Below, piece by piece: positions 6,261 to 50,631 of a stretch of DNA of 64,000 nt. Both the position numbers and the translations under genes were made by a program. The DNA comes from Minisyncoccota bacterium (GTDB lineage: Bacteria; Patescibacteriota; Minisyncoccia; Phycocordibacterales; UBA9973). The stretch lies in assembly GCA_021734995.1 (NCBI GenBank), contig JAIPHX010000003.1, positions 11,969 through 75,968 of the forward strand, read 5' to 3'. How positions within the stretch are numbered: the stretch's first letter is position 1; the number at the start of each line of letters is the position of its first letter. The notes under the pieces were generated by a model, which did no database searches, was not told the origin of the DNA, and worked only from the letters and a program-made list of their open reading frames with translations.

Positions 6261-6332
6261 TGCGAGATCGTCTAATGGTAGGACAACGGTTTCTGGAACC
6301 GTCTATCTAGGTTCGAATCCTAGTCTCGCAGC
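6261..6332 (+). tRNA. tRNA-Gln (anticodon CUG)
   Basis: Manually folded cloverleaf. Acceptor tgcgaga/tctcgca, D-stem gtct/ggac, anticodon stem acggt/accgt with loop ttCTGga, T-arm ctagg-ttcgaat-cctag. No encoded CCA. Confidence 0.8.
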
Positions 6333-6401
6333 AGTCTAGTTTTTCGTACCTAGTGACCAAGATGGGTGTTCTGTGTTAATTTTTTAATATAATTCTAACT
6401 T

Positions 6402-9113
6402 ATGAATAAACTGGATAAAGAAATACTAACCATCGATAAGGCCATTTGTAAAAATATCGATAAATACCACGCATCAGAAAGAGGTCTTTTGGCGCAGAAT
6501 ATCCTTTCTCAGCTCAGAAATTTTATAGAACGCGTCGCTCTTAAAGAAGAAACCAACGGACAAGATATTGATTTTAATTTCGAGGATTTAAAAAGAGCTC
6601 CAAATAGACTACAGCCAAATGGGTCACTATGGTTTATTAGAAGGTTCCATAATTTTCTGCAAGGTGTTGCAGGTCACGATACTCAAACCGAAGAAAATTC
6701 TGAGCGCTTGATGTTAAAATATTATGAATATTTACTAAGAGTCAAAGCCTACCTAAAAAATACTCACGGTTTAGATGTTCTAGATAATATTGATAAATTT
6801 CCAATAAATACTGACCCTGCGTTGCAACAGTATTATGAAAAGATAGCTGAAAGAATTGAGCGTCCAACTAAAACAAGAATAATCAATTCTTATAATGGAC
6901 GCTATTACATTCAAAAGATTAAACCATTTTTTGTTAATCACGAAATATACTATGAAGTCACTTTTACAATTGCCAGTGCTCAAGTTAGTAAATTTGATAG
7001 AGTTATTGCTTTTACGAAATTGAATATCCCTGATAATTACGCTGTTAAATTTTCTTTAATTCATGACGACATAGAGGTCTTAAGCAAAAAAATGCCCATA
7101 CAAATTATCGATAAATTTGAAGTTTCTATAAGGCCTTGCGAACTCAACAATTTTGGTCGCATTTTAGGTGAGAATGTAAAGATCGAGACAAAAAATGCAG
7201 AGTATAAAAATCTAATGGGTTTTCTAACAGACACAAAGCTAAGCCTCGTTGAGCTTATTGACCTTCCAGATGATTATTATGATGCTATAAAAACACGAAT
7301 CGTTCAGGGTCTTCAGGTTGTATACTTTTTGCCAATCTTAGACAAAGTGAGGACTCTAGTTAAGAACAATGAAGTTGGCATCAACGTAGTTAGATACTTA
7401 CTCCATTGTTTAAATAATAGAATTATAAAGTTACAGAATAGTTATTATGGCGGGTATAAACTTCGCACAGACTTCAATCTAAATCTTGGATGTAAGCCGT
7501 TCGACACAATGCCCGTTAACTCATCTTTAATAGGACATAATCCCGAAATTTCAACCGTTTTTGAATGTATTGATGCAACAGATCGAGAACACGAACTATT
7601 TGGAAGACTTATAAAAAACAATACAGAGAATAAGGGAAAGCTGTACACACCTCTAACAGGTTTGATCAAGACAAAGAAAGAAATTGAATCTCTTGTTAAG
7701 ACTTATAATAGTAAGTTGTATCTCCCCAAACATAACCATCGCAAGCTGGAGAATTTTAATGATTTTATTTATATAAATGGATATGAAAAAGATACTTTAG
7801 ACATTATCAAAAAATTTAAAGAATTGACCTTAAATGGTATAAGCAACTACTCAAATTCGGTGGACTCATGGTTAAGATCATCTGCGTACAAAATTGATTG
7901 CAAGGATAAAGAAAAAATACTCAGACAGTTATTTGCTGATTCAGAGATAGCCTTGGTATATGGGGCAGCGGGAACAGGAAAATCGACATTAATAAATCAC
8001 ATATCAAACTTTTTCAACGATAATAAAAAGCTCTATTTAGCAAATACCTATCCAGCACTTGATAATTTAAAGAGAAAAGTAACCGCAGCAAATTGCAAGT
8101 TTCAGACAATCGCAAAGTTTCTATCACCTAAAAACACTGAAGTCGACTTTGATATTCTCATCATTGATGAGTGTAGTACTGTCAGCAACATACATATGGT
8201 TAATGTCTTGAGTAAGGTAAAATTCAAATCATTGATACTAGTTGGCGATGTGTTTCAAATTGAACCTATCATATTTGGAAACTGGTTTAATATCGCGCGA
8301 TATTTTATACCCAAGACTGCTGTCTCAGAATTAACCGTTCCTTATCGCACTACCAACAAAGAATTGATTGAATTCTGGAATAGGGTCAGAAACTTACAAG
8401 ACAACATTCTTGAAAGTATGACTAGAAACGATTATACCACTGTTTTGAATGAATCAATTTTTAAGAACCTTGAAGATGATGAAATTATTCTTTGTTTAAA
8501 CTATGATGGCCTGTATGGCATCAATAACTTAAACAGGTTTCTTCAGAATAGTAACGAAAACGCACCTGTTGATTGGGATATACAAACCTACAAGACTGGA
8601 GATCCAATACTTTTTAATGAAACCGAAAGATTCGCGCCACTAATATACAATAACCTTAAAGGTAGGATTGTTGACATAAATAAAGCCGAGAAGCAAATTC
8701 AATTTGATATTGAAATTGACAAGGCCATAAACGAACTACAAGCATCTGACTATGATTTTAAGTTAGTTGGAAGTGCTGAAAATGGAAACTCAATCATTAG
8801 ATTCATTGTTAATGAGCGAGGCAACACGGATGAAGATGATGATCCTTTAGATTCCGTAGTTCCATTTCAGGTTGCTTATGCTATTTCTATTCATAAAGCT
8901 CAAGGTCTAGAGTATAATTCAGTAAAGATTGTTATCTCAAGTGAGACTGAAGAAATGATAACTCATAACATTTTCTATACAGCCATAACTAGAGCCAAGG
9001 AGAAACTAAAAATATATTGGACACCTGAAGCAGAGAAAAAAGTTTTGGCTGGTTTTCAAAAACTTGATAGTACTGAAGATGTAGAGATTTTATTTTCAAG
9101 GTTAAGTCCATAG
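6402..9113 (+). CDS. SF1 RecD/Dda-like helicase (AAA_30 + UvrD_C-like) with about 500-aa unknown N-terminal region
   Basis: Walker A ALVYGAAGTGKST, Walker B LIIDECS, and C-terminal motifs VAYAISIHKAQGLEYNSVKIV and IFYTAITRAKEKL are typical of RecD/TraA-like helicases. Confidence 0.7.
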   Translation: MNKLDKEILTIDKAICKNIDKYHASERGLLAQNILSQLRNFIERVALKEETNGQDIDFNFEDLKRAPNRLQPNGSLWFIRRFHNFLQGVAGHDTQTEENSERLMLKYYEYLLRVKAYLKNTHGLDVLDNIDKFPINTDPALQQYYEKIAERIERPTKTRIINSYNGRYYIQKIKPFFVNHEIYYEVTFTIASAQVSKFDRVIAFTKLNIPDNYAVKFSLIHDDIEVLSKKMPIQIIDKFEVSIRPCELNNFGRILGENVKIETKNAEYKNLMGFLTDTKLSLVELIDLPDDYYDAIKTRIVQGLQVVYFLPILDKVRTLVKNNEVGINVVRYLLHCLNNRIIKLQNSYYGGYKLRTDFNLNLGCKPFDTMPVNSSLIGHNPEISTVFECIDATDREHELFGRLIKNNTENKGKLYTPLTGLIKTKKEIESLVKTYNSKLYLPKHNHRKLENFNDFIYINGYEKDTLDIIKKFKELTLNGISNYSNSVDSWLRSSAYKIDCKDKEKILRQLFADSEIALVYGAAGTGKSTLINHISNFFNDNKKLYLANTYPALDNLKRKVTAANCKFQTIAKFLSPKNTEVDFDILIIDECSTVSNIHMVNVLSKVKFKSLILVGDVFQIEPIIFGNWFNIARYFIPKTAVSELTVPYRTTNKELIEFWNRVRNLQDNILESMTRNDYTTVLNESIFKNLEDDEIILCLNYDGLYGINNLNRFLQNSNENAPVDWDIQTYKTGDPILFNETERFAPLIYNNLKGRIVDINKAEKQIQFDIEIDKAINELQASDYDFKLVGSAENGNSIIRFIVNERGNTDEDDDPLDSVVPFQVAYAISIHKAQGLEYNSVKIVISSETEEMITHNIFYTAITRAKEKLKIYWTPEAEKKVLAGFQKLDSTEDVEILFSRLSP

Positions 9114-9121
9114 TAACTAAT

Positions 9122-10387
9122 TTATTCAATTACTACACGCTTATTGATGAGTATCAATTTACTCGTAAACGATTGCATCAAATCTCTCTTTTCTTGAAGA
9201 GTTCCTTCTTTAAGAAGATATTTCATATAGTTTCTAACATCTAGTTTTGTCTTTGCTATTTTTTCGTCATTGGTTAGGTCTAATACTTTATTTCTAAACT
9301 CACTATATCTTTCAATTTCTTTTTCAAGTTTTTCTTTTATTCCAACATTATTTATATCTATCCGGTCAATGATTTCAAGTAGTTGGGAAATTAATTCTTC
9401 TTCGCGAATGTAAGTATTTTTACATTGTTTATCATTAAATTTAGTACAACCATAATAAATATATTTTGCTACACTTCCATTCGCTAGATTTTTATGTTTT
9501 TCATCAGCGGTAACTCCCGATTTACACATCCCACATTTTATTAGCCTAGTGAAAGCAAATTCTTTTTCAATTTTTTTGTCATTCTTTTTGGTGTCCAATC
9601 TTTCTTGAACCCTTTGAAATATTTCCTTACTAACTATTGGATCATGTCTTCCTAAGTACCATTTACCTGATTGTCTAGGATATTCAATCATTCCCATGTA
9701 AAAATTATTTCTTAGAATAACTTGGATATTACTAAGAGTTAAAGGTTTTCCGTTTCTAGTTGTAAATTTTACATCTTCTTTTGCCCATTTATATAATTTT
9801 CTTATACTTAAATTTTCATTTAAAGCTTTTTCAAATAATAAACGTACCACATGAGATCTTAATGGGTCTGGTATCACATGACATTTCATAGTCCTATCTG
9901 GATGATTAAGATATCCAGTAGGGGCGACGCTTGGCCAGAGCCCACTCTCTACTCTTGTTCTTAATCCTCGTTTTACATTTATACTTTTATTATCATTTTC
10001 TAATTTTGCTTGTGATCCAAGAATCATTAATAAAAATTTTTCATTTGGGTTGTTTGTGAATCGCTGACTATAAGTTCTGATTTCAATTAATTTCTTTTGA
10101 TCTAGTAAATCAACTATTGCTCCAAGGTCCCCAGCATTTCTGGCGAGACGATCTGGATGCCACACTAGAATTGCATTAAATTTCCCAATACGAATATCAT
10201 TTAGAAGTTGATTGTATACAGGTCTTTGTCCACAATCTTTTGCTGAGTGTGATTCTTTATATATTTCAACAATATTTAAGTTTTCTCTCTGAGATAAGGT
10301 GAGCATCTCCTTTATCTGAGAATCTATAGATAAAGCTTGTTTTTCCTCTGCCTCGCTCGATTTGCGGGCATATAAGCAGTATTTCAT
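9122..10387 (-). CDS. Large serine recombinase (resolvase/invertase catalytic domain + recombinase domain + zinc ribbon)
   Basis: YARKSSEAEEKQALSIDSQ (catalytic Ser) and LVWHPDRLARN motifs, with a Cys-rich C-terminal region (CGMCKS...YYGCTKF...C). The ORF could start 33 codons upstream at 10486. Confidence 0.75.
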   Translation of the reverse strand: MKYCLYARKSSEAEEKQALSIDSQIKEMLTLSQRENLNIVEIYKESHSAKDCGQRPVYNQLLNDIRIGKFNAILVWHPDRLARNAGDLGAIVDLLDQKKLIEIRTYSQRFTNNPNEKFLLMILGSQAKLENDNKSINVKRGLRTRVESGLWPSVAPTGYLNHPDRTMKCHVIPDPLRSHVVRLLFEKALNENLSIRKLYKWAKEDVKFTTRNGKPLTLSNIQVILRNNFYMGMIEYPRQSGKWYLGRHDPIVSKEIFQRVQERLDTKKNDKKIEKEFAFTRLIKCGMCKSGVTADEKHKNLANGSVAKYIYYGCTKFNDKQCKNTYIREEELISQLLEIIDRIDINNVGIKEKLEKEIERYSEFRNKVLDLTNDEKIAKTKLDVRNYMKYLLKEGTLQEKRDLMQSFTSKLILINKRVVIE

Positions 10388-10546
10388 AGTAATGGCTTCT
10401 GTTAGCTTGGGATTTATTAGGATGTTTGTCGCATATGTTTCCATACACACAACATACCGCGAACGTTTATTAAGTCTAGTAAACACATCGAAATGGAGCA
10501 GAAATTTTATAAAGTCAAATATAAAGATGTGATATAATCAACTTAT

Positions 10547-12160
10547 ATGAAAATCTCTAAAATTGAAGTTGAAAATTTTAAATCTATTGAAAAATATGAT
10601 TTTGACTTAAAAGACATTAATATTTTTATTGGTAAAAATAATCACGGTAAAACAAATCTTTTTGATGCATTAGATTGGTTTGATTCTGGAAAAACAGAAC
10701 CTTCTAATTATAGAAACAATGATAGGGCTTTGCTAATAAAAGTGAGATTACATTTCGTCGGAGCTCAGGTAGCAGTTAATGCACTTGAGGATGGTGCATA
10801 TAAAACAGCAATGATAAATGCCCTAGAAGGAACAGATGAGTTTATTGTTGAAAAAGACAGCGAAAACGATAAAAGAGTTTTGATTGTTAACGGCACTACA
10901 AGACCAAATCCAAGAGGTTTTGATTCTGCTCTAAATTATTTTTTACCAAAAATAATTTATGTAACAACAAAACAGCGTTTGTCTGATATTGCTGGTTATA
11001 AATCAAAATCTCCAATCGCAGAAATGTTAGGAGATGTCCTGAAAGATATGGTTGATAATGAACCAAAATATAAGCAATTTCTCGAACTTTTTGATGATCT
11101 TTTTAATGAGAGTGATTCTGTGTTTAGACAATCAGTGAACAACCTACAAGACAGAGTAGAATTTTATCTCGCAAAACAATTTGATGAAGCAGCTGAGGTT
11201 AAATTTCGAATTGAGAATCCTGCTATCGAAGATATGCTTAAGAAATTTGAAACAGAGGTTGATGACGGAATTAAAACAAAAGCTGAACATAAGGGGGATG
11301 GAATGCAACGAGCAGTAATGCTTGCAATTGTTCAAGCATATGCGGATTTTCGAAAAGAAAAAGGTATCGCTAGAACATTTACTTTTCTTATTGATGAAGC
11401 TGAATTACACTTACACCCAACAGCTCAGAGAGCTTTAAAAAATGCCCTCCGTGAGATTGTGGAAAATGAAGGACAAGTACTTATAAATTCACATTCCCCA
11501 ATCTTTGCAAACGAGCTTTTTACAAATCAAAAGATTTATAAAGTAGAAAAGGAAACAGGAGTTTCTCAAGTTAATGAAATTATCACTGAGCAAGAGCAAT
11601 TAGACTCTATTTACCAACTTCTTGGAGGTAGTCCGCAAGACATTTTATTACCAAGTAATTTTATAATTGTTGAAGGACAATCTGAATTCCATCTATTAAA
11701 AAAGCTCATTGAAAAACTATATTTTGATAACAAAAAATGTTCAGCCATTAAAATACTTTTCGCTCGGGGTGATCATGAAAAACATAAAGATATTTATCAT
11801 TGCATTCATCAATGTTATACTCCATTACTTACAAACGGTATTTATAAAAATAAGGTAGTATTTCTCATGGATAGTACAGATCCATCAAAACAAGCCTCTT
11901 TTGATACCTTCAAGGCAACACATAGTTGGCTTATTGAAGGAGAACAACTACATGTTCTAACTGTTCCAGCTATTGAAATGATTTACCCTGATTCATTTAA
12001 AAAAACAAAACTAGAAGTTGATAAAATGACCAATCCAAAAGAAAAAATAAATATTGCTTTAGGTGTAGCAAATTCAATCAACACCAAACAAGAGCTTCAA
12101 GATAAAATGCCAGCAATTTTTAACATGTTAGAGAAAGCAATAGAATTTGCTTATGAATAA
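10547..12160 (+). CDS. OLD-family nuclease (ABC-type ATPase + C-terminal Toprim), solitary class-1-like
   Basis: Walker A GKNNHGKTN. Walker B/D-loop LIDEAELHLHP. H-loop LINSHSPIF. A Toprim-like IIVEGQSEF glutamate is followed by an MDSTD acidic motif. Confidence 0.65.
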   Translation: MKISKIEVENFKSIEKYDFDLKDINIFIGKNNHGKTNLFDALDWFDSGKTEPSNYRNNDRALLIKVRLHFVGAQVAVNALEDGAYKTAMINALEGTDEFIVEKDSENDKRVLIVNGTTRPNPRGFDSALNYFLPKIIYVTTKQRLSDIAGYKSKSPIAEMLGDVLKDMVDNEPKYKQFLELFDDLFNESDSVFRQSVNNLQDRVEFYLAKQFDEAAEVKFRIENPAIEDMLKKFETEVDDGIKTKAEHKGDGMQRAVMLAIVQAYADFRKEKGIARTFTFLIDEAELHLHPTAQRALKNALREIVENEGQVLINSHSPIFANELFTNQKIYKVEKETGVSQVNEIITEQEQLDSIYQLLGGSPQDILLPSNFIIVEGQSEFHLLKKLIEKLYFDNKKCSAIKILFARGDHEKHKDIYHCIHQCYTPLLTNGIYKNKVVFLMDSTDPSKQASFDTFKATHSWLIEGEQLHVLTVPAIEMIYPDSFKKTKLEVDKMTNPKEKINIALGVANSINTKQELQDKMPAIFNMLEKAIEFAYE

Positions 12161-12202: not shown

Positions 12203-13006
12203 ATGAATGTACTTACATTTTTACCCAAAAAAGATATAGAGAAATTTATAGATAAAGATGCTTACCTTGTTATTGAATATTTATTAAGGAAAGTAGCCTT
12301 TTCTCAACCAGAGGTAAGGAATAAATCTGAACTTTCTGGTATCCAAATAACAAAAGAGTTTTTGGAGGATTGGATAGCTCAAGCATGTAATTTAACAAAA
12401 GTAGGAGCTGGTAATTATCCTATTGATGTATATAGTCAAAATAAGTATGGAATAGATGTTAAATTTTTGACAGCAAAAATAAATAAGAGTGGTGATTATA
12501 CAAATAGCTATTCAAATGAAACTTCACTTAGCCAAAACTTTAAAATTGCCGGATTAGATTTAGATCAAATGTTTGCCAGTAAGAGATACGAAAATATATT
12601 ATCAGCTTGGATAAAAATTCTTGAAACTAAAATAAACATACCTATCAAAGATTTTAAACTGAAAAAAATTTATTATTTTATTTTTATTAGAGCTGGAAAT
12701 AAAGTTTCCTTAGCAATAGCTGATGTTAACAATAAAGAAATAAAAAAACTTACTACAAATAGATCAACAGATTCTTCTGTTTTTGTTCAGAATTTCATTG
12801 AAGATAAATATGGTAATGTAAAAATATATAAAAGTAAAAAAAGAATGGAACTTAGAGTTTTTCCTAAAAAATTAGAAGAGGATAAAAAAATGATCTCTTG
12901 GAATTTTAAAGATTTATATCCAGATATAATTTCACTTAGAGACGTAATTAAACATGAAGAGATAAAAGAGCACACTAAAAAACAGTTCAAAAAATTCTTT
13001 TCTTAG
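12203..13006 (+). CDS. Putative Type II restriction endonuclease (PD-(D/E)xK candidate)
   Basis: Convergent with, and 1 bp from the stop of, the C5-MTase gene. Candidate motif NYPID...GIDVKFLTAK (PD-x12-DVK). No other recognisable domain. Confidence 0.4.
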   Translation: MNVLTFLPKKDIEKFIDKDAYLVIEYLLRKVAFSQPEVRNKSELSGIQITKEFLEDWIAQACNLTKVGAGNYPIDVYSQNKYGIDVKFLTAKINKSGDYTNSYSNETSLSQNFKIAGLDLDQMFASKRYENILSAWIKILETKINIPIKDFKLKKIYYFIFIRAGNKVSLAIADVNNKEIKKLTTNRSTDSSVFVQNFIEDKYGNVKIYKSKKRMELRVFPKKLEEDKKMISWNFKDLYPDIISLRDVIKHEEIKEHTKKQFKKFFS

Positions 13007-14671: not shown

Positions 14672-16180
14672 ATGGCTAAACCTAAAATAACAAGAACATA
14701 TGGACCAATACACTTCGAAGATTTAGACCCGAAGCGCTTTGAGGATTTAGCTAGAGAATTAATATATGACTTTAAAGATTGGCAGACAATAGAAGCAACT
14801 GGTAGAGGTGGTAATGATGGGGGTTTTGATGTTAGGGCGTATGAAAAAACTTCTGACATTTCTAATGAAGAAGATAGCGAAGAAAATGAAGAAAAAGTTG
14901 CCCATCCCATGGATGGTAATTTATGGATGATTCAGGGAAAAAGAGAGAAGGAAATTGGTCCTAAAAGAATAAAAGAGATACTAAAAGATGTAGATTCAAA
15001 AAATCCCCCATATGGATATATGTTAGTCGCCTCGGCAAATTTTTCTAAAGATTCTTACGATTCTTTTAGAAAAGAATTAAAAAAGAAAGGAGTAATGGAA
15101 TTTTATCTCTGGGGTAAAGCGGAGTTAGAAGATATGTTACATCTTCCAAAAAATGATCGCATACTATTTACCTTCTTTGGTATTTCGTTGGTAAGCAGAA
15201 GACGGTCTAAATCTGCTGAAGTTAGATCTAAGTTAGTTATTAAGAATAAAATTTATAAAACTCTTGGTGGTAGTTGGGAGTCTTTAAATGACACCTCTGT
15301 TTTAGTCAGAGATATAGATGATATCCATTATCCGTATAAAAATAAATATAAAGATTTTGATAAAAAGCCAAAATGGAAAGAGTATTTTGCTTATGACTAT
15401 CATCCCTTAGGTGTATGGTTCCATACACGCAAATACTACGCTTACGTTGATTTGGCAAAAAAAGAATGGGACTACACTTCTGAAGTAGATTTATTATATC
15501 GACAGGTAAAAAGTGAGAAAGAAAAGGAATTAGAACTTAATAAACGCAATGAAATAAAAACTATATGGGAATTTTTCCCTAATTCTCACAAAGGATATTT
15601 TAACCTAGATGGATTAATAGATTTTGAAAACATACTTTTAGTTGATGATAAGGGAGATAGTTTACACACATTCCCTCACTTCTACGCTGAATATAAAGAT
15701 AAATCTGGACCTTTTGTTGGAGGTTGGGAAAGTTTTACTTTTGAAAACAAAGAGAGAAATATTACTTTAACAAAAGATTGGAAAAGAATAGAGATGTTTC
15801 CAAAAAAGATAAAGAAAATTCCCAATGGTAAAATCCATACAAAGAAAAAAATTATCTTCGATGAAGTTACATTAAAAAATCTAAAGGATTACGACCAAAA
15901 CCTTTTTGCCTTATATGACACAGATGATAAATATAAATTTTTGAATCAAAGAGATATAATCTCGGTGGAAGGTGCAGGAGATGAAGAATATAGTAAAACT
16001 TTTTTACAAATAACTCATAAGTTTAAAGTTAAGGTTAAAGATTATTTAGATCAAAGTAGATTTGGTTGGTTACATAATAGAATAAAAGAACAGCTTGGAA
16101 GGGACTTTGATGAAAACGAAGAAATAAATGTTTATGAATTCAAGAGGGTCTACAAGCGAGAATTTGATGTAAGTGGATAA
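14672..16180 (+). CDS. Mrr-cat-like restriction endonuclease domain protein (N-terminal nuclease + about 340-aa uncharacterised C-terminal region)
   Basis: TGRGGNDGGFDVRA, IQGKR, MLVASANFSKDS and YLWGKAELEDML align with the Mrr_cat consensus (tgrsgDgGiD...VQcK...vTtssFt...LidgeeL). Confidence 0.65.
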   Translation: MAKPKITRTYGPIHFEDLDPKRFEDLARELIYDFKDWQTIEATGRGGNDGGFDVRAYEKTSDISNEEDSEENEEKVAHPMDGNLWMIQGKREKEIGPKRIKEILKDVDSKNPPYGYMLVASANFSKDSYDSFRKELKKKGVMEFYLWGKAELEDMLHLPKNDRILFTFFGISLVSRRRSKSAEVRSKLVIKNKIYKTLGGSWESLNDTSVLVRDIDDIHYPYKNKYKDFDKKPKWKEYFAYDYHPLGVWFHTRKYYAYVDLAKKEWDYTSEVDLLYRQVKSEKEKELELNKRNEIKTIWEFFPNSHKGYFNLDGLIDFENILLVDDKGDSLHTFPHFYAEYKDKSGPFVGGWESFTFENKERNITLTKDWKRIEMFPKKIKKIPNGKIHTKKKIIFDEVTLKNLKDYDQNLFALYDTDDKYKFLNQRDIISVEGAGDEEYSKTFLQITHKFKVKVKDYLDQSRFGWLHNRIKEQLGRDFDENEEINVYEFKRVYKREFDVSG

Positions 16181-16448
16181 CTTAACTACACAATAATTTA
16201 AATTCAAGCTAAGCTTTTAATACCTCTAAAAATGAGGTATAATTTTAGTACAAGTGAATATGAGTAGCCTAAACCATTGAGAAATTGGTGGCATGGTGAA
16301 TAAGTCGCGTTCAACATAAAAACCCTATCATTAGGGCGTTGAACGCGCTGTATGAGGAAACTCATATATGAGACTTCGGTCTCTACCTAGTGGTAGGATT
16401 TTTGCGTCTTATCATAGGATTTATTACTAAAACGCAAAAATAATTTTT

Positions 16449-16919
16449 ATGGAAGAAAAATCAAAGAAAAAGTTTTATAAGAAGTGGTGGTTCTGGGTTA
16501 TTGTTGTAATTGTAGTATTAGCAATTGCTGGTTCATCATCTGATAATAATCAGCCAGTTTCAGTTAAGACTCCAGCGCAAAGTCAATCTGAACAAAAAGT
16601 TGAAGCAATTAAATTGAGTCCGGAAACTTTAAGACAAGCATACAAAGCAAATGAAGTTAATGGTGATAATTTGTACAAAGGAAAACTTGTAGAAATTTCT
16701 GGGACTGTAGACACTATTGGAAAGGATGTAATGAAAGAAGCATATATTACTTTTGAAACACCTGAATCTGTTTCTTTTGATAAGGTTCAATGCATGTTTA
16801 ACCAAACAGAAGAAGCTGGACTAGCTCAGTTAAAGAAAGGGCAAGCTATAAAAGTACAAGGAACAGTATCTGGAGCAACTATAGGAAGTGTAATAGTAAG
16901 AAACTGTAAAATTCAGTAA
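16449..16919 (+). CDS. Membrane-anchored OB-fold (tRNA_anti-like/BOF-type) protein
   Basis: N-terminal TM WWFWVIVVIVVLAIAG. C-terminal KGKLVEISGTV...KVQGTV is an OB-fold-like pattern typical of PF12869. Confidence 0.45.
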   Translation: MEEKSKKKFYKKWWFWVIVVIVVLAIAGSSSDNNQPVSVKTPAQSQSEQKVEAIKLSPETLRQAYKANEVNGDNLYKGKLVEISGTVDTIGKDVMKEAYITFETPESVSFDKVQCMFNQTEEAGLAQLKKGQAIKVQGTVSGATIGSVIVRNCKIQ

Positions 16920-18987: not shown

Positions 18988-19128
18988 AGAGTTATTAGTT
19001 TGGTATGAAGTATGCTATATTTCAAAAATATCATATGTAATTATCTACAAAATATTCCATGCAGGAAAAACTAAAAAATGATACAATTTATGTATTGAAA
19101 ATAATGTATATTAAAGAGAATTAAAATT

Positions 19129-19500
19129 ATGAAAAAGAAAGAAATGGCACCAAAAATAAACATTAAAACTTTAACTGAGCGTATAATAGATTTTCGTGAT
19201 GCTAGGGATTGGAAGCAATTTCACAACCCAAAAGATATTGCGTTATCTCTTGTTTTAGAGGCAACTGAAGTGATGGAACATTTTCAATGGAAAAGTAAAG
19301 AAGAAATGGAAAAATATATTGTCACTAATAAAGCTGATATAGCTGAAGAACTTGCAGATGTTCTGTATTGGGTTTTGCTCATGAGCAGTGATTTAAAGAT
19401 TGATGTACTCAAGGCTCTCGATAAGAAAATTTTAAAAAATGAAGGGAAATATCCGGTGCACAAAGCTAAAGGGAAACATACTAAGTATACTAAATTATAA
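19129..19500 (+). CDS. MazG-like nucleotide pyrophosphohydrolase
   Basis: EATEVMEHF...AEELADVLYWVL is the MazG EExxE/D metal-binding pattern. Length 123 aa. Confidence 0.6.
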   Translation: MKKKEMAPKINIKTLTERIIDFRDARDWKQFHNPKDIALSLVLEATEVMEHFQWKSKEEMEKYIVTNKADIAEELADVLYWVLLMSSDLKIDVLKALDKKILKNEGKYPVHKAKGKHTKYTKL

Positions 19501-19501
19501 A

Positions 19502-21535
19502 ATGTCTAATATTGTAACTTTTAAATATAAAAAGGAAAATTTTTATGAAATAAAACAATTTAATTTTGGGAGAAATTGGCCAGTAGTCTATTTAATTGAA
19601 GACAAAAAAGAGATTTATATTGGGCAAACAATTAATGCATATTACAGAAGTAAGCAACATTATGAAAATCCAGACAGAAGAAAACTGAGTGAAGTGCATA
19701 TTATAACAGATGAAGAATTTAATGTTTCTGCCACGTTAGATATTGAGTCTTGGCTCATTCAATATATTTCTGCTGATGGTAAATATATATTACAGAATGG
19801 AAATAGCGGGCTTAAAAATCATAATTATTATGATCGTATAAAATACAAAACCAAATTTGAAATAGCATGGAACGAGTTGAGAAAGATGGGATTAGTTAAA
19901 AATTCTTTAGAAGATTTAAAAAATAGTGATTTGTTTAAATATTCGCCATATAAATCTCTTACAGAAGATCAATTTTTTATTGCAAGAAAGATTTTTAGAG
20001 ATATTAAAAGAAACAAAAACAATACTTTTGTTATAAATGGTAAACCTGGTACAGGTAAAACAATTTTAGCTACATACCTTTTTAAATATTTAAAAGAACA
20101 AGATGAAACAAAAAATATGAAAATTGGTCTTGTTATTCCGATGACTTCATTGCGTACAACTTTAAAAAGAGTTTTTAGTAAAATAAAAGGATTGAAATCA
20201 AATATGGTTATTGGGCCGAACGGTGTTGTTCAAGAACAATATGATCTATTGATAGTCGACGAAGCACATAGATTACAACGAAGGAAAGGTATTATGGGTT
20301 TTGGTGCCTTTGATAATATAAATCGTCGGCTTGATTTAGGAAACAATGGTACACAGCTTGATTGGGTTATGAAATCTTCTAAACATCAAGTTTTCTTTTA
20401 TGATGAAAATCAAAGCATAAAACCTGCTGATATTAGATCTGATGATTTTAAAAATCTTAAAACAAAGAGATATGAATTAAAATCTCAGATGCGAGTGGAA
20501 GCAGGAGAAGAATATATCAAATCTATTGAAGATTTTTTTGATTTAAAAATTCCTCAAAATACAAGTTTTCTAAATTATGATTTAAAAATTTTTGATGAGG
20601 TAAAAGAAATGATTACTTTGATTAAAGAGAAAGACAAAAATTATAAATTATCTCGTGTAGTTGCTGGTTACGCATGGCCATGGCATACAAAGCCAAAAAG
20701 TAAATCAACTAAAAAACATGATATTGAGATAAGTGATTTAAAACTTGTTTGGAATTCTACAGCTCAAGATTGGGTTAATTCCCATAATGCTATAAATGAA
20801 GTTGGTTGTATCCATACTGTGCAAGGTTATGATTTAAATTATGTTGGAGTTATCATTGGACCAGAGTTTTATTATGACCCAATCAAGAAAAAATTTGGAG
20901 TAAATCGTGAACAATATTTTGATGTCAATGGAAGAAATGGTATTACAGATCCGAATGAATTAGAAAGATATATTATTAATATTTACAAAACACTTCTTAC
21001 TAGGGGGATTAAAGGAACTTATATTTATGTTGTAGATGAAAATTTAAGGGATTATTTTAAAAAACAATTTAAACAAAAAGTTTCCGAAACAGGTCTAAAG
21101 GAATTTTATAATACAGAAATGATAACCTCTCCTTTCACAATGGAAATGATTAGAATTCCATTAGTTGGTTCTGCTCCATGCGGAAATCCTTTTCTTGGTG
21201 AAGAAAACATAGAGCAGTATATTGAAGTTGAAAAAAATAAAATTAAACCTGGAACAAAATATTTCATAGTTAAAGCAAATGGAGATTCAATGAATAAAGC
21301 AGGTATTAATGATCAAGATTTAGTACTTTGTCGTTACTCTGAAAAAGGTGAAACGGGTGATAAGGTTATTGCATTACTTGATGGTGAAAATGTTACCATA
21401 AAATATTACGATAAAAAAAATGGGCGTAGAATTTTGTTGCCAAAAAGTACAAATATAACACATCAACCAATTTTCCCTAAAGAAGGTGATATAGTTCAGG
21501 GGATTGTTCAAGAAGTTTTGAATAAAAAATCTTAA
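19502..21535 (+). CDS. Tri-domain protein: GIY-YIG nuclease + DUF2075/Schlafen-like DEAH ATPase + UmuD/LexA-like S24 autopeptidase
   Basis: GIY-YIG: VVYLIEDKKEIYIGQT..R.KQH..E..N. ATPase: Walker A INGKPGTGKT and LLIVDEAHRL. C-terminus: cleavage-site-like APCGNP (UmuD Cys-Gly), GDSM Ser and VTIKYY Lys. The start sits 1 nt after the MazG stop (MSNIVTF); the listed ORF start at 19439 overlaps MazG. Confidence 0.7.
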   Translation: MSNIVTFKYKKENFYEIKQFNFGRNWPVVYLIEDKKEIYIGQTINAYYRSKQHYENPDRRKLSEVHIITDEEFNVSATLDIESWLIQYISADGKYILQNGNSGLKNHNYYDRIKYKTKFEIAWNELRKMGLVKNSLEDLKNSDLFKYSPYKSLTEDQFFIARKIFRDIKRNKNNTFVINGKPGTGKTILATYLFKYLKEQDETKNMKIGLVIPMTSLRTTLKRVFSKIKGLKSNMVIGPNGVVQEQYDLLIVDEAHRLQRRKGIMGFGAFDNINRRLDLGNNGTQLDWVMKSSKHQVFFYDENQSIKPADIRSDDFKNLKTKRYELKSQMRVEAGEEYIKSIEDFFDLKIPQNTSFLNYDLKIFDEVKEMITLIKEKDKNYKLSRVVAGYAWPWHTKPKSKSTKKHDIEISDLKLVWNSTAQDWVNSHNAINEVGCIHTVQGYDLNYVGVIIGPEFYYDPIKKKFGVNREQYFDVNGRNGITDPNELERYIINIYKTLLTRGIKGTYIYVVDENLRDYFKKQFKQKVSETGLKEFYNTEMITSPFTMEMIRIPLVGSAPCGNPFLGEENIEQYIEVEKNKIKPGTKYFIVKANGDSMNKAGINDQDLVLCRYSEKGETGDKVIALLDGENVTIKYYDKKNGRRILLPKSTNITHQPIFPKEGDIVQGIVQEVLNKKS

Positions 21536-21550
21536 ATTATTTATTAATAA

Positions 21551-22054
21551 TTGTTCAAAACAATATTATATAGAATGAATAAAACCACAAACTCTCAAGA
21601 ATCTAAAGGACGTGTACGTTTAAAAAAACTTGAAAAAGAAGGGAAGTGGGTTTTTCATGGTTCTGGATTAAAAATAAATATATTAGAGCCCCATCAAGCT
21701 TACAATTATCCAAAGAGTTCAGGGACAAAAGGGGTACCAGATGACAAGCCTGCAGTGTTTGCTTCTGTTTTTGCTGATGTTGCGATTTTTATGGCTGTGG
21801 TTAATAAATTAAATGCTCCATATAATTTTCGAAGTGGTTTTAGTGTGCATGGTGATAATACTTTTGAGTTTAGAGCGACAAAAGAAACAATGGAGCAAAT
21901 TCAGAACGTGAAAGGATATGTGTATGTGTTTGATAAATCAAAATTTAAAAATCGTTCTACGAGTGAATTACTGTCTTATAAAGCTGTCATACCAGATGAA
22001 ATGATTGTGGTTAATGAAAAAGATTTACCAAAAAATATTACTAGCATAAATTAA
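21551..22054 (+). CDS. Hypothetical protein
   Basis: A 167-aa ORF 15 nt downstream of the tri-domain gene. No recognisable motif. Confidence 0.4.
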   Translation: MFKTILYRMNKTTNSQESKGRVRLKKLEKEGKWVFHGSGLKINILEPHQAYNYPKSSGTKGVPDDKPAVFASVFADVAIFMAVVNKLNAPYNFRSGFSVHGDNTFEFRATKETMEQIQNVKGYVYVFDKSKFKNRSTSELLSYKAVIPDEMIVVNEKDLPKNITSIN

Positions 22055-22083: not shown

Positions 22084-22587
22084 ATGAAAATAACAGAAGA
22101 CTATTTAGAACAACATACTGGGCATAAATATATTTTTGAATATGAAGAAGTGGATTCTTTTGATGATTTACCGTATGAAAAATGCAGACAATGTTATGGT
22201 GTTTGTTTTTATGATGACAAGATAATAATAGTTTATAACAAGGAAAAAAATGTTTGGGGGATTATAGGGGGTACAATTGAGAAAGGGGAAACATTTGAGG
22301 AAACTCTTAAAAGAGAAGTAAAAGAAGAATCAAATATGGAAATCATAAAAGCTATCCCTATAGGATATCAAAAAGTTACTGATCCAAAAGATAAAGATTT
22401 TGTTCTTTACCAACTTCGTTATGCATGTGCTGTCCGACCATATGGTCCTTTTGTTGCTGATCCAACGGGTTCTGTAACAGAAATCAAGATAATTAACCCG
22501 AAAGACTACAAAAAGTATTTTTATTGGGGGAAAATAGGAGAAAGTATATTTAAGAGAGCTTTAGAGCTAAAAGCTGTTCTTTATTAA
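22084..22587 (+). CDS. NUDIX hydrolase
   Basis: Nudix box GGTIEKGETFEETLKREVKEESNMEI (Gx5Ex7REVxEExN). Confidence 0.7.
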   Translation: MKITEDYLEQHTGHKYIFEYEEVDSFDDLPYEKCRQCYGVCFYDDKIIIVYNKEKNVWGIIGGTIEKGETFEETLKREVKEESNMEIIKAIPIGYQKVTDPKDKDFVLYQLRYACAVRPYGPFVADPTGSVTEIKIINPKDYKKYFYWGKIGESIFKRALELKAVLY

Positions 22588-22701
22588 ATCGATTAAATCC
22601 ATAATACCTCATCTATTGTTTTAGTAAAAAGTTCGGTTTTTGTTTAAGAGACACAGTTTGAATTTTATTTTGTATAAATAAATTATTAGCGATATAATAA
22701 A

Positions 22702-23475
22702 GTGATGAGTGAATATAAAAAAGAATTAGAGATTGCAAAAAATATTGCAAGGGATGCAGGGTTAATTATGCTGAAGTATTTTGATGGAGATCAACATGTA
22801 GAAATCAAAGAAGACAATTCTCAAGTAACCATTGCAGACAAACTTATTAATTCTCTAGTAATAGAAAGATTGAAGGTTGTATTTCCAGAGGATGGGGTAG
22901 TAGGGGAAGAAGAAAGTAATACCGAGTATGGTACTGGAAGAAAATGGTTTTGTGATCCAATAGATGGAACAATGGCTTTTATTTGGGGCACACCTACTTC
23001 AATGTTTTCTTTGGCTCTAGTGGTTGACGGTATTCCTGTCCTTGGAGTTGTTTATGATCCGTTTCTTGATAAATTATATGAAGCAGTAGTAAACCAAGGA
23101 AGTTTTTGTAATGGGCATCCTTTAAAAGTTTCTAACAAAGAATTAAACGATGGACTTGTGGTTACTACAAGTAGTATAAATAAAATAATGAAAAGACCAA
23201 ATCATTTAGTTCGTCTGTCAGAGATGGGAGTGCGTTTTGCTACTTTTAGTGGAGCTGTGTATAAAGCTTGTCTTGTGGCTAAAGGAAAAGCAGAGGCTTA
23301 TTTTGAAGATGGTGTGAACGCTTATGATATTGCTGCAGTGCAAGTGATTGTTGAGGAAAGTGGCGGGAAAGTTACAAATATTAAAGGAGAAAAACTTGAC
23401 TATACGAAACCATTTAAGGGAGCTGTTATTTCAAACAAGACTTCCCATGATGAAATGGTTAAGTGTTGCTCTTAA
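22702..23475 (+). CDS. Inositol monophosphatase family protein (SuhB/CysQ-like)
   Basis: Motifs GEEES and WFCDPIDGT (DPIDGT) are characteristic of the IMPase family. Confidence 0.7.
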   Translation: MMSEYKKELEIAKNIARDAGLIMLKYFDGDQHVEIKEDNSQVTIADKLINSLVIERLKVVFPEDGVVGEEESNTEYGTGRKWFCDPIDGTMAFIWGTPTSMFSLALVVDGIPVLGVVYDPFLDKLYEAVVNQGSFCNGHPLKVSNKELNDGLVVTTSSINKIMKRPNHLVRLSEMGVRFATFSGAVYKACLVAKGKAEAYFEDGVNAYDIAAVQVIVEESGGKVTNIKGEKLDYTKPFKGAVISNKTSHDEMVKCCS

Positions 23476-23605
23476 ATGAAAAAGTGTTAAATAGCATAAA
23501 ATAAAAATTTACAAAAACGTAAAAACGGACAGATGTGTTATAATTTATAGATTACAAGAAAGGGTGAAGTTATAAGAAAATTATAATACCAAATAAGAGA
23601 CAAAA

Positions 23606-24148
23606 ATGGCTTACGAAATAGAAACAAAGGTTTTAGACATAGACTCACTTGATATAAAACAAAAACTCATTGATTTGGGAGCAAAAAAAATTCAAGAAAC
23701 ACGGCTTGTTGTTGATTGGTATAGAATATTGGGGATAAAAGAAGGAGAAGATCCGTGGTTTTTAAGAATAAGATCAAATTCAAGTGGGGGACACGAGGTC
23801 ACATGGAAGGCAAAGTCAGATATTTTAGGGGTGGCAAGAAAACATAAAGAAATTAATTTTGAAATTAATGAGCCAGAAAAATTAGCTGATTTGTTTGAAG
23901 AATTAGGGCTTGAAAAATATGGACATCAAGAGAAAGACAGAACCTCTTTTGTTTATAAAGACTGGCAGTTTGATATAGACCAATATCCTAAAATGCCTGC
24001 ATTCCTTGAGATAGAAGGTAAAAGCGAAGAGTCGGTAAGAGAGGCGATGAAAATTCTTGGGATAGAGAAGAATCCTACTTGGGCAAAAGGAGAAAGGATT
24101 TTAATTCAGGATACTTACGGTTTAGATTGGTATGATATGAGATTTTAA
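23606..24148 (+). CDS. CYTH-domain triphosphate tunnel metalloenzyme
   Basis: N-terminal YEIETKVL (the ExExK CYTH signature). About 180 aa. Confidence 0.55.
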   Translation: MAYEIETKVLDIDSLDIKQKLIDLGAKKIQETRLVVDWYRILGIKEGEDPWFLRIRSNSSGGHEVTWKAKSDILGVARKHKEINFEINEPEKLADLFEELGLEKYGHQEKDRTSFVYKDWQFDIDQYPKMPAFLEIEGKSEESVREAMKILGIEKNPTWAKGERILIQDTYGLDWYDMRF

Positions 24149-40328: not shown

Positions 40329-42473
40329 TTAAGATGCTCTTCTTAGAGTAATACCGTTGGAAGATTGTGTTTTTGGTGTTTCTACTTGGATTGGTTGGAT
40401 ATTAACAGGATTGTTTATAATATTTGGGTCGTCGCTTGCTCTATTGAATTGATTTGGGTTATTTCCTTCTTCAGATAAAAAATTTAATGGATCAGCTACT
40501 TGGTCTTTTTTTGTTGGGGCGGTAGAATATATTTTTTGCATATCTTCTATGAATTTTTCAGGAAGACCTAGAGCTCTATATGGTGTCTCATTAAAAATAG
40601 TAGGATTAGCAGGGGTGAGAATTTTTTTTTCATTTGCTGTTGTTGGGTTAGTAATTGTCGTGGTTTCGACTGTTTTAGGTTGTCCGATTGTATCTAAAGT
40701 AGGATTCTCTGTTTTTTGGATTTCTATTTTTGGAGTTTCTGCTCTTTCTGTTTGTTTTATCGCAGGGGCTACTTCCTTTGTTGTATTTGTTGTGGGTTCT
40801 TCTTTTGTTGGTTTTTCTGGTGCTTTTGTTGTTGTTTTTTCCTGTATTTTTACCTGCACTTCTGTTGTGTCTTTTTCTGTAGGTACTTTTACATCTATTG
40901 TTTTTGTTGTGTTTTGTTCTTTTGTTGTGTCTGGGTTTACAATTTTTCCCCGCATTTGATCAATCAAAAAGTCTAGAGATGTTTTTTCTGTTTGATTTAT
41001 GGCTACATCTTGTTCTGTTGTTTTTGTCTTATTATTTTCGGTACTTTTAGTATTTTTCGCTGTGTTGTGTTCTGTATTATTAGTTGTTACTTCTTCAGTG
41101 TTGATTATTTCTTTTCCATCTTCAATCTTAAAAATTTTGGTATGAATTTGTTCATTCTCTGTATTGTTTGTTTCTTGTGGGTTTTCTATTGGTTGTTCTT
41201 TCCCAACTTCCTGTGTTTCTGTTTGTATTATTTCTGTGGGAGTTTCATTTTCTACTTTGTCCGTAATTGTATCATCTTGTATGTTTTCAAAACCACCACT
41301 CAAATCTCCAGCTAGTTTTTCAATAGGGGATTCTTGTGGTTGTACATTGTCTGGTGCATTATTTTCTACCACTTCTATATCACTGACTACTTTTTCGGTA
41401 TCTATTATCTCTGCACCATCTTTGATATCAAAAATTTTAGTATCAATTTGTTTATCTTCTTTGTTCTGTATTTCTTTTAGATCTATATTTTGTTCTATTA
41501 TAGTTTCTGCTTCGCTTGTAATTTCTTCGCTTGGTTTTATCGTCTCATCTTGTGTATCTTCAAAATCACCACTCAAATCTCCAGCTAGTTTTTCAATAGG
41601 GGATTCTTGTGGGCTTTCCATTGCTATATTGTCTGGTGCATTGTTTTCTGCTAGTTCTGTATCAATGACTACTTTTTTGGCATCTATTATCTCTGCACCA
41701 TCTTTGATATCAAAAATTTTAGTATCAATTTGTCCTTCCTCTGTATTGTTTGTTTCTTGTGGGTTTTCTATTAGTTGTTCTTTCCCAACTTCCTGTATCT
41801 CTATTTGTGGTGCTTCTACTGGAGTTTCATTTTCTATTGTTTGAGTGAGTTCTGGATTTTTTAAATCATTAATATCTTCTGGGTTGTTTCTGTCCACTAC
41901 CTTTTCTTCGGTTTCTTTTTTTTCTTCCTTATATTTTTTATTTTCGTAAAGAACATCTTTGTTTTCATCTAGTATACAGAAGATTAAAAGTATCTCTTTT
42001 GTTCCATCAGGGTTTGTCTTCACATTTTCTGTTATTTGGTATGGTTCATTGGGGGTTTTTTGTACATGGTCTAAAAGTTTTAAATGTTCTTCCCATACTT
42101 TTGGTTGATTATTTTTTTCTGCCCATTCTTTAATAAGGGCGGTGATTGATTCTCCGTTTTTGTCAAACATTTCTCCGTTCTCTATTTTCCCTGTACCTTT
42201 TATACTTTCTGTTGTCCAATCACCTTTTTCTCCGTAATATTTTCCATCTATAATCTTATCAGCATATGTTTTTAAGATTTGTGCTGGGGCTTGTTTTTCT
42301 GTTTCATCTTTTTGTATATTTTTTTCTGCCTCCTCTTCTTTATCTGTATCTTTATCTCCTTCTTTTTCTTCTTCTTTTGGTTTTATTTCTGTTTTAACAC
42401 TAACATCAAAAGGATCTTTAAGATCTTCTACATGATCATCTATTTCATATACTTGTGGTGATTCTTGTTCCAT
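40329..42473 (-). CDS. Large acidic low-complexity protein with roughly 90-100-aa tandem repeats
   Basis: A 714-aa E/T/K/N/P-rich ORF. The unit ...QEVGKEQxIENPQETNNTE.GQIDTKIFDIKDGAEIID...ENNAPDN...ESPIEKLAGDLSG.FE... is repeated about 3 times. No signal peptide. Confidence 0.55.
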   Translation of the reverse strand: MEQESPQVYEIDDHVEDLKDPFDVSVKTEIKPKEEEKEGDKDTDKEEEAEKNIQKDETEKQAPAQILKTYADKIIDGKYYGEKGDWTTESIKGTGKIENGEMFDKNGESITALIKEWAEKNNQPKVWEEHLKLLDHVQKTPNEPYQITENVKTNPDGTKEILLIFCILDENKDVLYENKKYKEEKKETEEKVVDRNNPEDINDLKNPELTQTIENETPVEAPQIEIQEVGKEQLIENPQETNNTEEGQIDTKIFDIKDGAEIIDAKKVVIDTELAENNAPDNIAMESPQESPIEKLAGDLSGDFEDTQDETIKPSEEITSEAETIIEQNIDLKEIQNKEDKQIDTKIFDIKDGAEIIDTEKVVSDIEVVENNAPDNVQPQESPIEKLAGDLSGGFENIQDDTITDKVENETPTEIIQTETQEVGKEQPIENPQETNNTENEQIHTKIFKIEDGKEIINTEEVTTNNTEHNTAKNTKSTENNKTKTTEQDVAINQTEKTSLDFLIDQMRGKIVNPDTTKEQNTTKTIDVKVPTEKDTTEVQVKIQEKTTTKAPEKPTKEEPTTNTTKEVAPAIKQTERAETPKIEIQKTENPTLDTIGQPKTVETTTITNPTTANEKKILTPANPTIFNETPYRALGLPEKFIEDMQKIYSTAPTKKDQVADPLNFLSEEGNNPNQFNRASDDPNIINNPVNIQPIQVETPKTQSSNGITLRRAS
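41150..41850. repeat. Approx. 277-bp DNA tandem repeat (about 2.5 copies) inside the acidic-protein gene
   Basis: Near-identical 40-45-bp blocks at 41300-41340/41575-41615 and 41413-41455/41690-41735. Confidence 0.6.
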
Positions 42474-42510: not shown

Positions 42511-42820
42511 GTGTGTTTTTGGAGTTATATAAAAATACCCCAAAAATTATCCTGCTCGGGAAAACATAAAAATAATTGGCAGTCGGACTTGTTCTCTTTA
42601 GTTTTCAAGAAACTAGAGACTTACCGTAGCGGCACTGTACCGGATTCTCACCGGTTTCCCCCATTATTTTTCTTAATTTTTAAACGACTTACATATACAT
42701 TGTACCTTTATTGGATTGCGTATGTCAACCTTGTGTTTTGTACCCCAAATTTGTAGGTGTGACGCTTGCAGTTATCTTATATCTAAAGCATTTTTACTTT
42801 AAATATGTATAATATGAAAG

Positions 42821-48893: not shown

Positions 48894-50470
<1,577 letters not shown>

Positions 50471-50631
50471 TTTGAAACTCTCTAGATTTATCTAGATTAT
50501 AGAGTCGATATTATGTCGCTCAATTGACGACATAATGCCTTTTGTAAGGGCTAATTACAAGGACTATTATTCTAGTCTTTAAAAGAATATGACACATTGG
50601 AAAGACTTGAAGTTATACGTCGCAAGACGGA

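Follow-up and report, generated by a model that had tools for sequence, protein, structure and literature searches.

Nhi (SERP2475) of Staphylococcus epidermidis is an anti-phage protein whose activity depends on the nuclease motifs as well as the helicase motifs and which limits the accumulation of phage DNA, and a Nhi-like protein with the same domain plan was also reported to give anti-phage protection (Millman et al. 2022). The Lactococcus abortive infection protein AbiO, which is toxic at high copy, joins a PD-(D/E)XK nuclease to a SLFN-3-like superfamily 1B (SF1B) helicase. The papers on bacterial Schlafen defence concern the RNase domain and not a helicase of the type described here. 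We analyzed a related locus in a 64,000-nucleotide (nt) stretch of contig JAIPHX010000003.1 (this whole stretch is hereafter called the window) from a Minisyncoccota bacterium, a member of the Candidate Phyla Radiation (CPR) with low-GC DNA (~31%). In this locus, a gene for a MazG-like nucleoside triphosphate (NTP) pyrophosphohydrolase (gene 1) is directly followed by a gene for a fusion of a GIY-YIG nuclease, a DUF2075-type SF1B helicase, and a LexA/UmuD-type S24 domain (gene 2; Table 1). We lean, with moderate confidence, towards reading the pair as a two-gene Nhi-like defence module that has a nucleotide-pyrophosphatase partner and that is, in this bacterium, placed under self-cleavage stimulated by filaments of RecA on single-stranded DNA (ssDNA; such filaments are denoted RecA*).

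The link to the described systems lies in the central part of the gene 2 product, which matched PF09848 (SLFN-g3_helicase/DUF2075) at amino acids (aa) 175–512 with an E-value of 9e-70 (236 bits vs. a cut-off of 24) and covered positions 3–354 of the 354 in the profile. The residues G180, G183, G185, K186, D253, E254, and H256 were invariant in 49 homologues and in diverse relatives. With this match and with the Walker A and DEAH motifs in place, the DUF2075-type P-loop ATPase proposed in the initial annotation, which was made from the letters of the window, was upheld. In an AlphaFold2 model of the full-length protein (predicted local distance difference test score, pLDDT, of 84.8), the best Foldseek matches were human SLFN11, RecD2, RecD, Dda, and Upf1 for the core and the LexA C-terminal domain for the tail, and we assign the core to the Schlafen-group-3/DUF2075 SF1B helicases. 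Human SLFN11 and the Schlafen group III proteins share the PF09848 core with gene 2, and SLFN11 was the top structural match; however, gene 2 carries a GIY-YIG DNase in place of the Schlafen (AlbA_2) RNase domain, for which no Pfam match was found in gene 2. Since this RNase domain is lacking, gene 2 was rejected as a Schlafen protein proper.

Comparison with named defence systems suggests that gene 2 is Nhi/AbiO-like but no clean member of either family. PADLOC matched it to AbiO (3e-15) and to Nhi (9.4e-15; gene 2 aa 142–390 vs. positions 173–387 of 470 in the Nhi model). Gene 2 resembles Nhi and Nhi-like proteins in joining a nuclease, at the N-terminus, to a DUF2075/Schlafen-group-3 SF1B helicase and in belonging to accessory, horizontally spread genes that often lie near defence genes, and it shares with AbiO the plan of a nuclease plus an SF1B helicase. 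It is set apart because the model matches are partial, because the nuclease is of the GIY-YIG type whereas both Nhi and AbiO have a PD-(D/E)XK fold, and because gene 2 has a near-obligate MazG partner and an S24 tail, whereas Nhi has been described as a single gene with neither, and AbiO has no S24 and no described MazG partner. Moreover, at the C-terminus, where gene 2 has S24, S. epidermidis Nhi has a glyoxalase/bleomycin-resistance domain that is poorly conserved. Two PADLOC candidates also matched weakly and partially, i.e., PDC-S14 in the GIY-YIG region (2e-6) and PDC-S41 at the helicase C-terminus (2e-7, with better matches from relatives that have an alternative N-terminus); both are single-gene candidates of unvalidated function, with no MazG or S24 component. 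No paper on MazG together with DUF2075, or on S24 together with DUF2075, came up in full-text literature searches, and searches on S24 with defence and on Schlafen with MazG likewise gave no description of either pairing. The initial annotation could not match the architecture to a named system; this has to be qualified, as the nuclease-DUF2075 proteins Nhi and AbiO are its closest named relatives.

By Pfam score alone, the GIY-YIG assignment of the N-terminal domain is weak, as the window protein reached 21.1 bits against PF01541, under the Pfam cut-off of 22.6. Motifs, profile, and predicted fold together now make the assignment secure: 41 of the 49 homologues matched PF01541 (E ≤ 0.01, best 2e-5), with 25.5 bits for one relative (L012); short homologues of the domain are annotated as GIY-YIG nucleases; and T4 EndoII, I-TevI, and UvrC were the highest-ranking PDB sequences for a profile of the domain. 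Residues Y30, Y39, G41, R49, H53, E82, and N99 were invariant in the 49 close homologues and in 24 diverse relatives (35–48% identity), and the predicted fold is the GIY-YIG alpha/beta fold. The GIY-YIG module was thus recognized correctly in the initial annotation.

The gene 1 product matched PF12643 (MazG-like) at 3e-15 (56.6 bits, cut-off 27) and, among PDB entries, an archaeal pyrophosphatase (4qgp, 2e-19) and, over its full length, DCTPP1/RS21-C6 (2a3q, 2e-18). The metal site common to gene 1 and DCTPP1 (ExxE...ExxD; here E44-x-x-E47 ... E74-x-x-D77) is intact, and its four residues were at least 97% conserved among 73 module-associated MazG-like proteins. These features place the protein among the all-alpha NTP pyrophosphohydrolases of the MazG/DCTPP1 type, and the DCTPP1 homology suggests deoxycytidine triphosphate (dCTP) or modified dCTP as its substrate. 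DCTPP1-type enzymes are classically house-cleaning enzymes, and DCTPP1/RS21-C6 stands alone, whereas gene 1 is paired with a nuclease-helicase gene across many phyla. MazG was among the predicted defence domains of a recent study, none of those listed there being experimentally validated. At two loci (L051, 2421–3917; L064, 1960–3939), the MazG-like domain forms the C-terminal part of proteins of 498 and 659 aa, the N-terminal regions of which had no Pfam match.

The two genes are tightly joined, as the initial annotation had described: the TAA stop codon of gene 1 (19498–19500) is followed by a single spacer base and then by the ATG of gene 2 at 19502. A scan found no terminator between them, and they are probably co-translated. 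Mechanical calling of open reading frames (ORFs) gives a longer gene 2 from 19439, but homologues begin at the 19502 methionine; the protein is 677 aa long, one residue shorter than the 678 aa first given, and is 100% identical to the NCBI entry 'DUF2075 domain-containing protein [Candidatus Pacebacteria bacterium]'. A promoter scan of the locus returned fewer promoter-like sites than shuffled sequence, and an extended -10-like string (TGnTACAAT) was spotted by eye at 19079–19087.

We compared 14 loci from species-representative genomes and 80 from metagenomes, with several more added by exact look-up or from plasmids. Adjacency was counted on complete loci, and a MazG-like gene more than 100 nt away or on the opposite strand was not scored as adjacent. 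For the architecture of gene 2 itself (GIY-YIG, helicase, and S24), MazG was the direct neighbour in 21/23 complete loci, at a distance of -11 to +3 nt, so that the coupling noted earlier in the window recurs in its relatives. MazG was also adjacent in 25/35 complete loci with GIY-YIG and helicase (3 further loci of this kind had a MazG-like gene nearby that missed the criterion, being up to 175 nt away or on the opposite strand), in 9/13 with the helicase behind an alternative N-terminus (~265 aa, with a D...ExK-like motif recognized by eye), and in 2/2 with this N-terminus, helicase, and S24. Overall, ~75–90% of complete loci had MazG beside the nuclease-helicase gene. Mostly on the same strand as the nuclease-helicase gene, the MazG-like gene lies either upstream or downstream of it, often with a 4-nt overlap or a gap of 0–3 nt, and the adjacency holds down to 27–40% helicase identity and in either gene order. 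Because the nuclease-helicase gene is nearly always paired with MazG, the two genes likely form a unit. This pair was found in CPR bacteria, Bacteroidota, Bacilli, gut metagenomes, and megaplasmids of Bacillus cereus/thuringiensis, where a RefSeq 'nucleotide pyrophosphohydrolase' adjoins a 'DUF2075 domain-containing protein'. Two of the plasmid loci (L097/L098, on B. thuringiensis pIS56-233 and a B. cereus plasmid) place a MazG and GIY-YIG-DUF2075 pair (WP_080546736.1 and WP_000947885.1 in the case of pIS56-233) in cultivable hosts, with genes for a zeta toxin, an HNH endonuclease, and a second (Nudix-type) deoxynucleoside triphosphate (dNTP) pyrophosphohydrolase nearby.

The conserved core is therefore MazG plus a nuclease-helicase, i.e., two genes, and S24 is an optional C-terminal add-on of a minority, roughly 10% of the representatives at 50% identity: among the best 150 of these, 134 had GIY-YIG and helicase with no S24 detected, 12 had a detectable S24, and ~15 were long enough to hold one. 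The S24 domain was probably acquired in this CPR lineage and, in a separate event, by another group of more distant relatives, of which a Bacteroidota metagenome-assembled genome (MAG) is an example. At one locus (L013, 350–3013), MazG and S24 are 75% and 74% identical to those of the window, respectively, while identity drops to 31% in the helicase and the N-terminal nuclease belongs to another type, marked by a D...ExK-like motif; such a mosaic suggests cassette exchange of the middle part, and parts of the module therefore appear to behave as exchangeable modules. In a Bacilli MAG (L014, 3600–7089), a reverse transcriptase gene of the UG13b group (PADLOC, 1e-108), a group predicted to be defensive, sits between a MazG-like gene and a gene for a DUF2075 helicase with the alternative N-terminus, and a candidate HipA-like gene (read from a sequence motif) and a serine recombinase gene lie beside this module.

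No third member of the unit emerged. A 167-aa ORF behind gene 2 had been put forward as a possible partner; its reported coordinates (21551–22054) are correct, although the ATG at 21575 is the likely real start, but it had no match in Pfam, NCBIfam, or PADLOC and no tblastn homologue in any of the 98 related loci (0/98), and a three-gene system including it was rejected. Downstream of it, genes for a Nudix hydrolase, an inositol-monophosphatase family protein, and a CYTH protein (22084–24148, + strand) are not conserved with the module elsewhere, and they too were rejected as partners (only 2 weak Nudix matches in 98 loci). A conserved flank partner of any other kind was likewise rejected, as 144 flanking ORFs fell into 104 Pfam families, none of which occurred more than 4 times. 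The phage collection held a few partial homologues, none with the gene 2 architecture.

The tail that distinguishes gene 2 from most of its relatives matched PF00717 (Peptidase_S24) at aa 553–659 (2e-18, 66.7 bits), the NCBIfam models TIGR00498 (lexA, 7e-19) and NF007621 (UmuD, 2e-15), and LexA and UmuD PDB chains (1e-14 to 1e-10). The last 130 aa can be aligned with LexA/UmuD throughout, and the match of the S24 domain to the LexA C-terminal domain extends across its full length of ~125 residues (template modelling score 0.75–0.80, normalised to target). C560-G561, S596, and K634 were invariant in the 49 homologues and correspond to a Cys-Gly bond (as in UmuD Cys24-Gly25), the GDSM serine, and the lysine; in our alignment, C560-G561 falls on A84-G85 of LexA. 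The S24 domain called in the initial annotation from its Cys-Gly site, GDSM, and lysine was thus recovered, and all motifs quoted there for the fusion protein are present in the window. The linker (aa 525–546) had a pLDDT below 50 and no consensus in the homologue alignment, and the loop around Cys560-Gly561 (aa 557–565) also had a low pLDDT; both are predicted to be flexible, and S24-less relatives end at about this linker. The winged-helix domain of LexA (PF01726), present in a neighbouring LexA-methyltransferase fusion, is absent from the gene 2 protein, which was rejected as a LexA repressor since it lacks this DNA-binding domain. In contrast to LexA and UmuD, S24 here forms the C-terminal part of an enzyme instead of a regulator, and cleavage would release a nuclease-helicase of 560 aa as cargo, not a repressor domain or a 24-aa arm. 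The (Cys/Ala)-Gly bond, the serine, and the lysine are kept together in 41 of 44 S24-bearing relatives, which span at least three diverged groups (a Cys-Gly clade, an Ala-Gly clade, and the gut form with the alternative N-terminus); the site is degenerate in the other 3, one of which (P0267) has lost both bond and lysine. This joint retention, together with the joint loss, suggests selection on S24 self-cleavage.

Table 1 Features of the two-gene module and of the neighbouring island in the window (positions in nt)
Feature	Position	Strand	Details
MazG-like NTP pyrophosphohydrolase gene (gene 1)	19129-19500	+	123 aa; PF12643; DCTPP1/RS21-C6 homologue
GIY-YIG / SF1B helicase / S24 fusion gene (gene 2)	19502-21535	+	677 aa; coding 19502-21532
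GIY-YIG nuclease domain	19502-19951	+	aa 1-150; catalytic set Y30, Y39-I-G41, R49, H53, E82, N99
SF1B helicase/ATPase core	19958-21073	+	aa 153-524; PF09848; SF1B structural matches
Walker A GKPGTGKT	20039-20062	+	aa 180-187
DEAH motif	20258-20269	+	aa 253-256
Linker, helicase to S24	21074-21139	+	aa 525-546; predicted disordered, poorly conserved
LexA/UmuD-type S24 domain	21140-21532	+	aa 547-677
Predicted cleavage bond Cys560-Gly561	21179-21184	+	S24 domain
S24 nucleophile Ser596	21287-21289	+	predicted
S24 general base Lys634	21401-21403	+	predicted
167-aa ORF, no family match	21551-22054	+	outside conserved module; listed as part of earlier claim
tRNA-Gln	6261-6332		followed by putative defence island
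PDC-S53 helicase, full length	within 6261-12160		PADLOC 1262 bits
Large serine recombinase	9122-10486	-	
OLD-family nuclease (Old)	10547-12160		3e-55
Unannotated 267-aa ORF	12203-13006		
LexA-S24-C5 cytosine methyltransferase fusion, 525 aa	13008-14585	-	Ala-Gly, GDSM, Lys intact
Mrr_cat endonuclease gene	14672-16180	+	divergently paired with LexA-methyltransferase fusion

Because its helicase core is related to those of Nhi and AbiO, we read gene 2 as a putative Nhi-type DNA-degrading effector with a different nuclease head. The helicase would load on DNA that is foreign or replicating, which the GIY-YIG domain would cut, as shown for Nhi, while the MazG partner may act on the dNTP pool, either by hydrolysing dCTP or modified dNTPs or by cleaning up after DNA degradation. 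RecA-ssDNA filaments arising from infection or DNA damage would stimulate S24 self-cleavage at Cys560-Gly561, by which the S24 core would be detached from the 1–560 fragment. We favour cleavage as an activating, licensing step, because this fragment has the architecture of many S24-less relatives. What the analysis shows is the architecture with its intact catalytic residues, the gene pairing and how widely it occurs, the mobility, and the contexts rich in defence genes. We infer the anti-phage role, the dependence on RecA*, whether cleavage switches the protein on or off, and what MazG acts on, and the same applies to the RecA*-triggered proteolytic activation and nucleotide depletion proposed in the initial annotation.

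Several points weigh against the defence module as proposed. Only the helicase core is covered by the PADLOC matches to Nhi and AbiO, and the nuclease is of another type. Some complete loci lack MazG, and in one S24-bearing CPR relative (L016, 5519–8022) a glyoxalase/bleomycin-resistance-like gene stands upstream in its place; as S. epidermidis Nhi carries such a domain at its C-terminus, an association of glyoxalase-like proteins with nuclease-helicases may recur. Some loci lie amid housekeeping genes (L015), and the availability of a host RecA and its interaction with gene 2 are not visible from a 64-kb window. Finally, a house-cleaning enzyme of the DCTPP1 type and an S24 domain from the SOS toolkit are compatible with a DNA-repair role, and a LexA-style inactivation by S24 cleavage fits equally well.

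A role in SOS-linked DNA repair or damage tolerance is possible, because DCTPP1-type enzymes are house-cleaning and S24 domains are part of the SOS repair toolkit, and we consider it the most serious, if unlikely, alternative: damaged DNA or stalled forks would be the substrates of the GIY-YIG helicase, damaged or modified dNTPs would be sanitised by MazG, and S24 would tie the activity to RecA* in the SOS response. Beyond the DCTPP1 homology of gene 1 and the closeness of the gene 2 S24 to LexA and UmuD, this alternative draws on the GIY-YIG fold being that of the UvrC nuclease, on neighbours such as the Nudix gene in the window, a pyrimidine-dimer glycosylase (L100), and the glyoxalase/bleomycin-resistance-like gene of L016, and on the housekeeping surroundings of L015. 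In addition, human SLFN11, which gave the best structural match, responds to replication stress. However, the module is patchily distributed in varied contexts, shows no synteny even at 82% identity, has plasmid-borne homologues, and often has defence genes in its flanks; its helicase core is homologous to those of the validated anti-phage proteins Nhi and AbiO, and its nuclease domain has been swapped among relatives, as is typical of conflict systems.

Less probable still, in our judgement, is that the same defence module carries S24 as a safety switch, whereby RecA*-driven removal of S24 would inactivate the nuclease-helicase and spare the damaged host chromosome. This follows the logic of LexA and phage CI, in which the functional domain is cut off from the dimerisation core and the protein is thereby inactivated; the gene 2 S24 aligns with the whole LexA C-terminal domain, which carries the dimer interface in LexA, and a host genome that is already damaged could be put at risk by a nuclease-helicase that works on ssDNA or replication intermediates. 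Against this reading, the 1–560 product resembles the abundant S24-less relatives, which are presumably active, and this suggests that function is not abolished when S24 is lost. That S24 is used solely to dimerise or to dock on the clamp or on RecA filaments, with no self-cleavage, and that MazG adjacency reflects co-expression without a shared mechanism, we regard as improbable, since the 3 degenerate sites among 44 and the same MazG partner in the S24-less majority, which would fit it, are set against a bond, serine, and lysine kept jointly in all other carriers across the diverged groups, the loss of both bond and lysine in P0267 as expected of one catalytic unit, and an adjacency that persists in distant partners in either gene order.

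The surroundings of the module agree with the preferred reading of a defence module. The region 6261–12160 looks like an integrated defence island, although no convincing attachment-site-like repeat was found around tRNA-Gln as a boundary; tRNA-Gln, the recombinase, PDC-S53, Old, the LexA-methyltransferase fusion, and Mrr lie within 13 kb, and the module lies ~3 kb beyond. The LexA-S24-C5 methyltransferase fusion, with an S24 that is 32% identical to that of gene 2, is a second intact S24 module close to gene 2, in line with the initial annotation, and with the divergently paired Mrr_cat gene it could form a restriction system whose methyltransferase/repressor is SOS-cleavable. The flanks of relatives include several restriction-modification methyltransferases and endonucleases, Mrr, PD-Lambda-5, PD-T4-1, Fic, and SocA matches. 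The closest relative (82% identity) has no flanking genes in common with the window, and more than 120 clusters at 67–83% identity come from several CPR lineages; these varied flanks, the lack of synteny, and the spread across lineages indicate a putative accessory, horizontally moving unit. A defence-type role, as first suggested, fits the AbiO and Nhi matches, the island with PDC-S53, Old, methyltransferase, and Mrr, and the differing, often defence-related flanks of the relatives.

Other features were observed around the module and its relatives. On one CPR contig (L100, 11078–13850), a Peptidase_M78 and HTH_3 pair and Multi_ubiq-ThiF-BubE genes, which look like a ubiquitin-like conjugation system, adjoin the module. 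In the window, an Rfam LOOT RNA (16266–16384, + strand; 74.5 bits, with the gathering score at 46.4) separates the Mrr-type gene from a gene for a tRNA_anti-like protein (16449–16919), an AdoCbl-II riboswitch (42569–42679, - strand) lies upstream of a 714-aa ORF (40329–42473, - strand), and a complete bacterial 16S rRNA gene is found at 48895–50472 (+ strand).

More broadly, we tentatively suggest, as a possibility we hold at less than even, that MazG and a nuclease-DUF2075 helicase constitute a widespread, undescribed two-gene anti-phage system. The S24-bearing effector would then be a co-protease substrate of RecA*, licensed by ssDNA-RecA filaments through proteolysis without a transcriptional step, and would be a bacterial counterpart of the sensing of ssDNA and replication stress by the homologous helicase domain of human SLFN11, a protein whose recruitment to ssDNA at stressed forks parallels such a RecA*/ssDNA-sensing add-on. 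If this is true, a broadly distributed two-gene family would be added to the nuclease-helicase class of defence systems, and the predicted but unvalidated MazG defence domain would gain a concrete partner. An SOS-type self-cleaving domain would act as a post-translational sensor on an effector enzyme, not on a repressor or a polymerase subunit, and the Schlafen-group-3 helicase lineage would be linked to bacterial DNA-damage sensing. Defence candidates with high conservation in CPR/Patescibacteria are rare, and the module would be one of them; its homologues in cultivable Bacillus make it testable.

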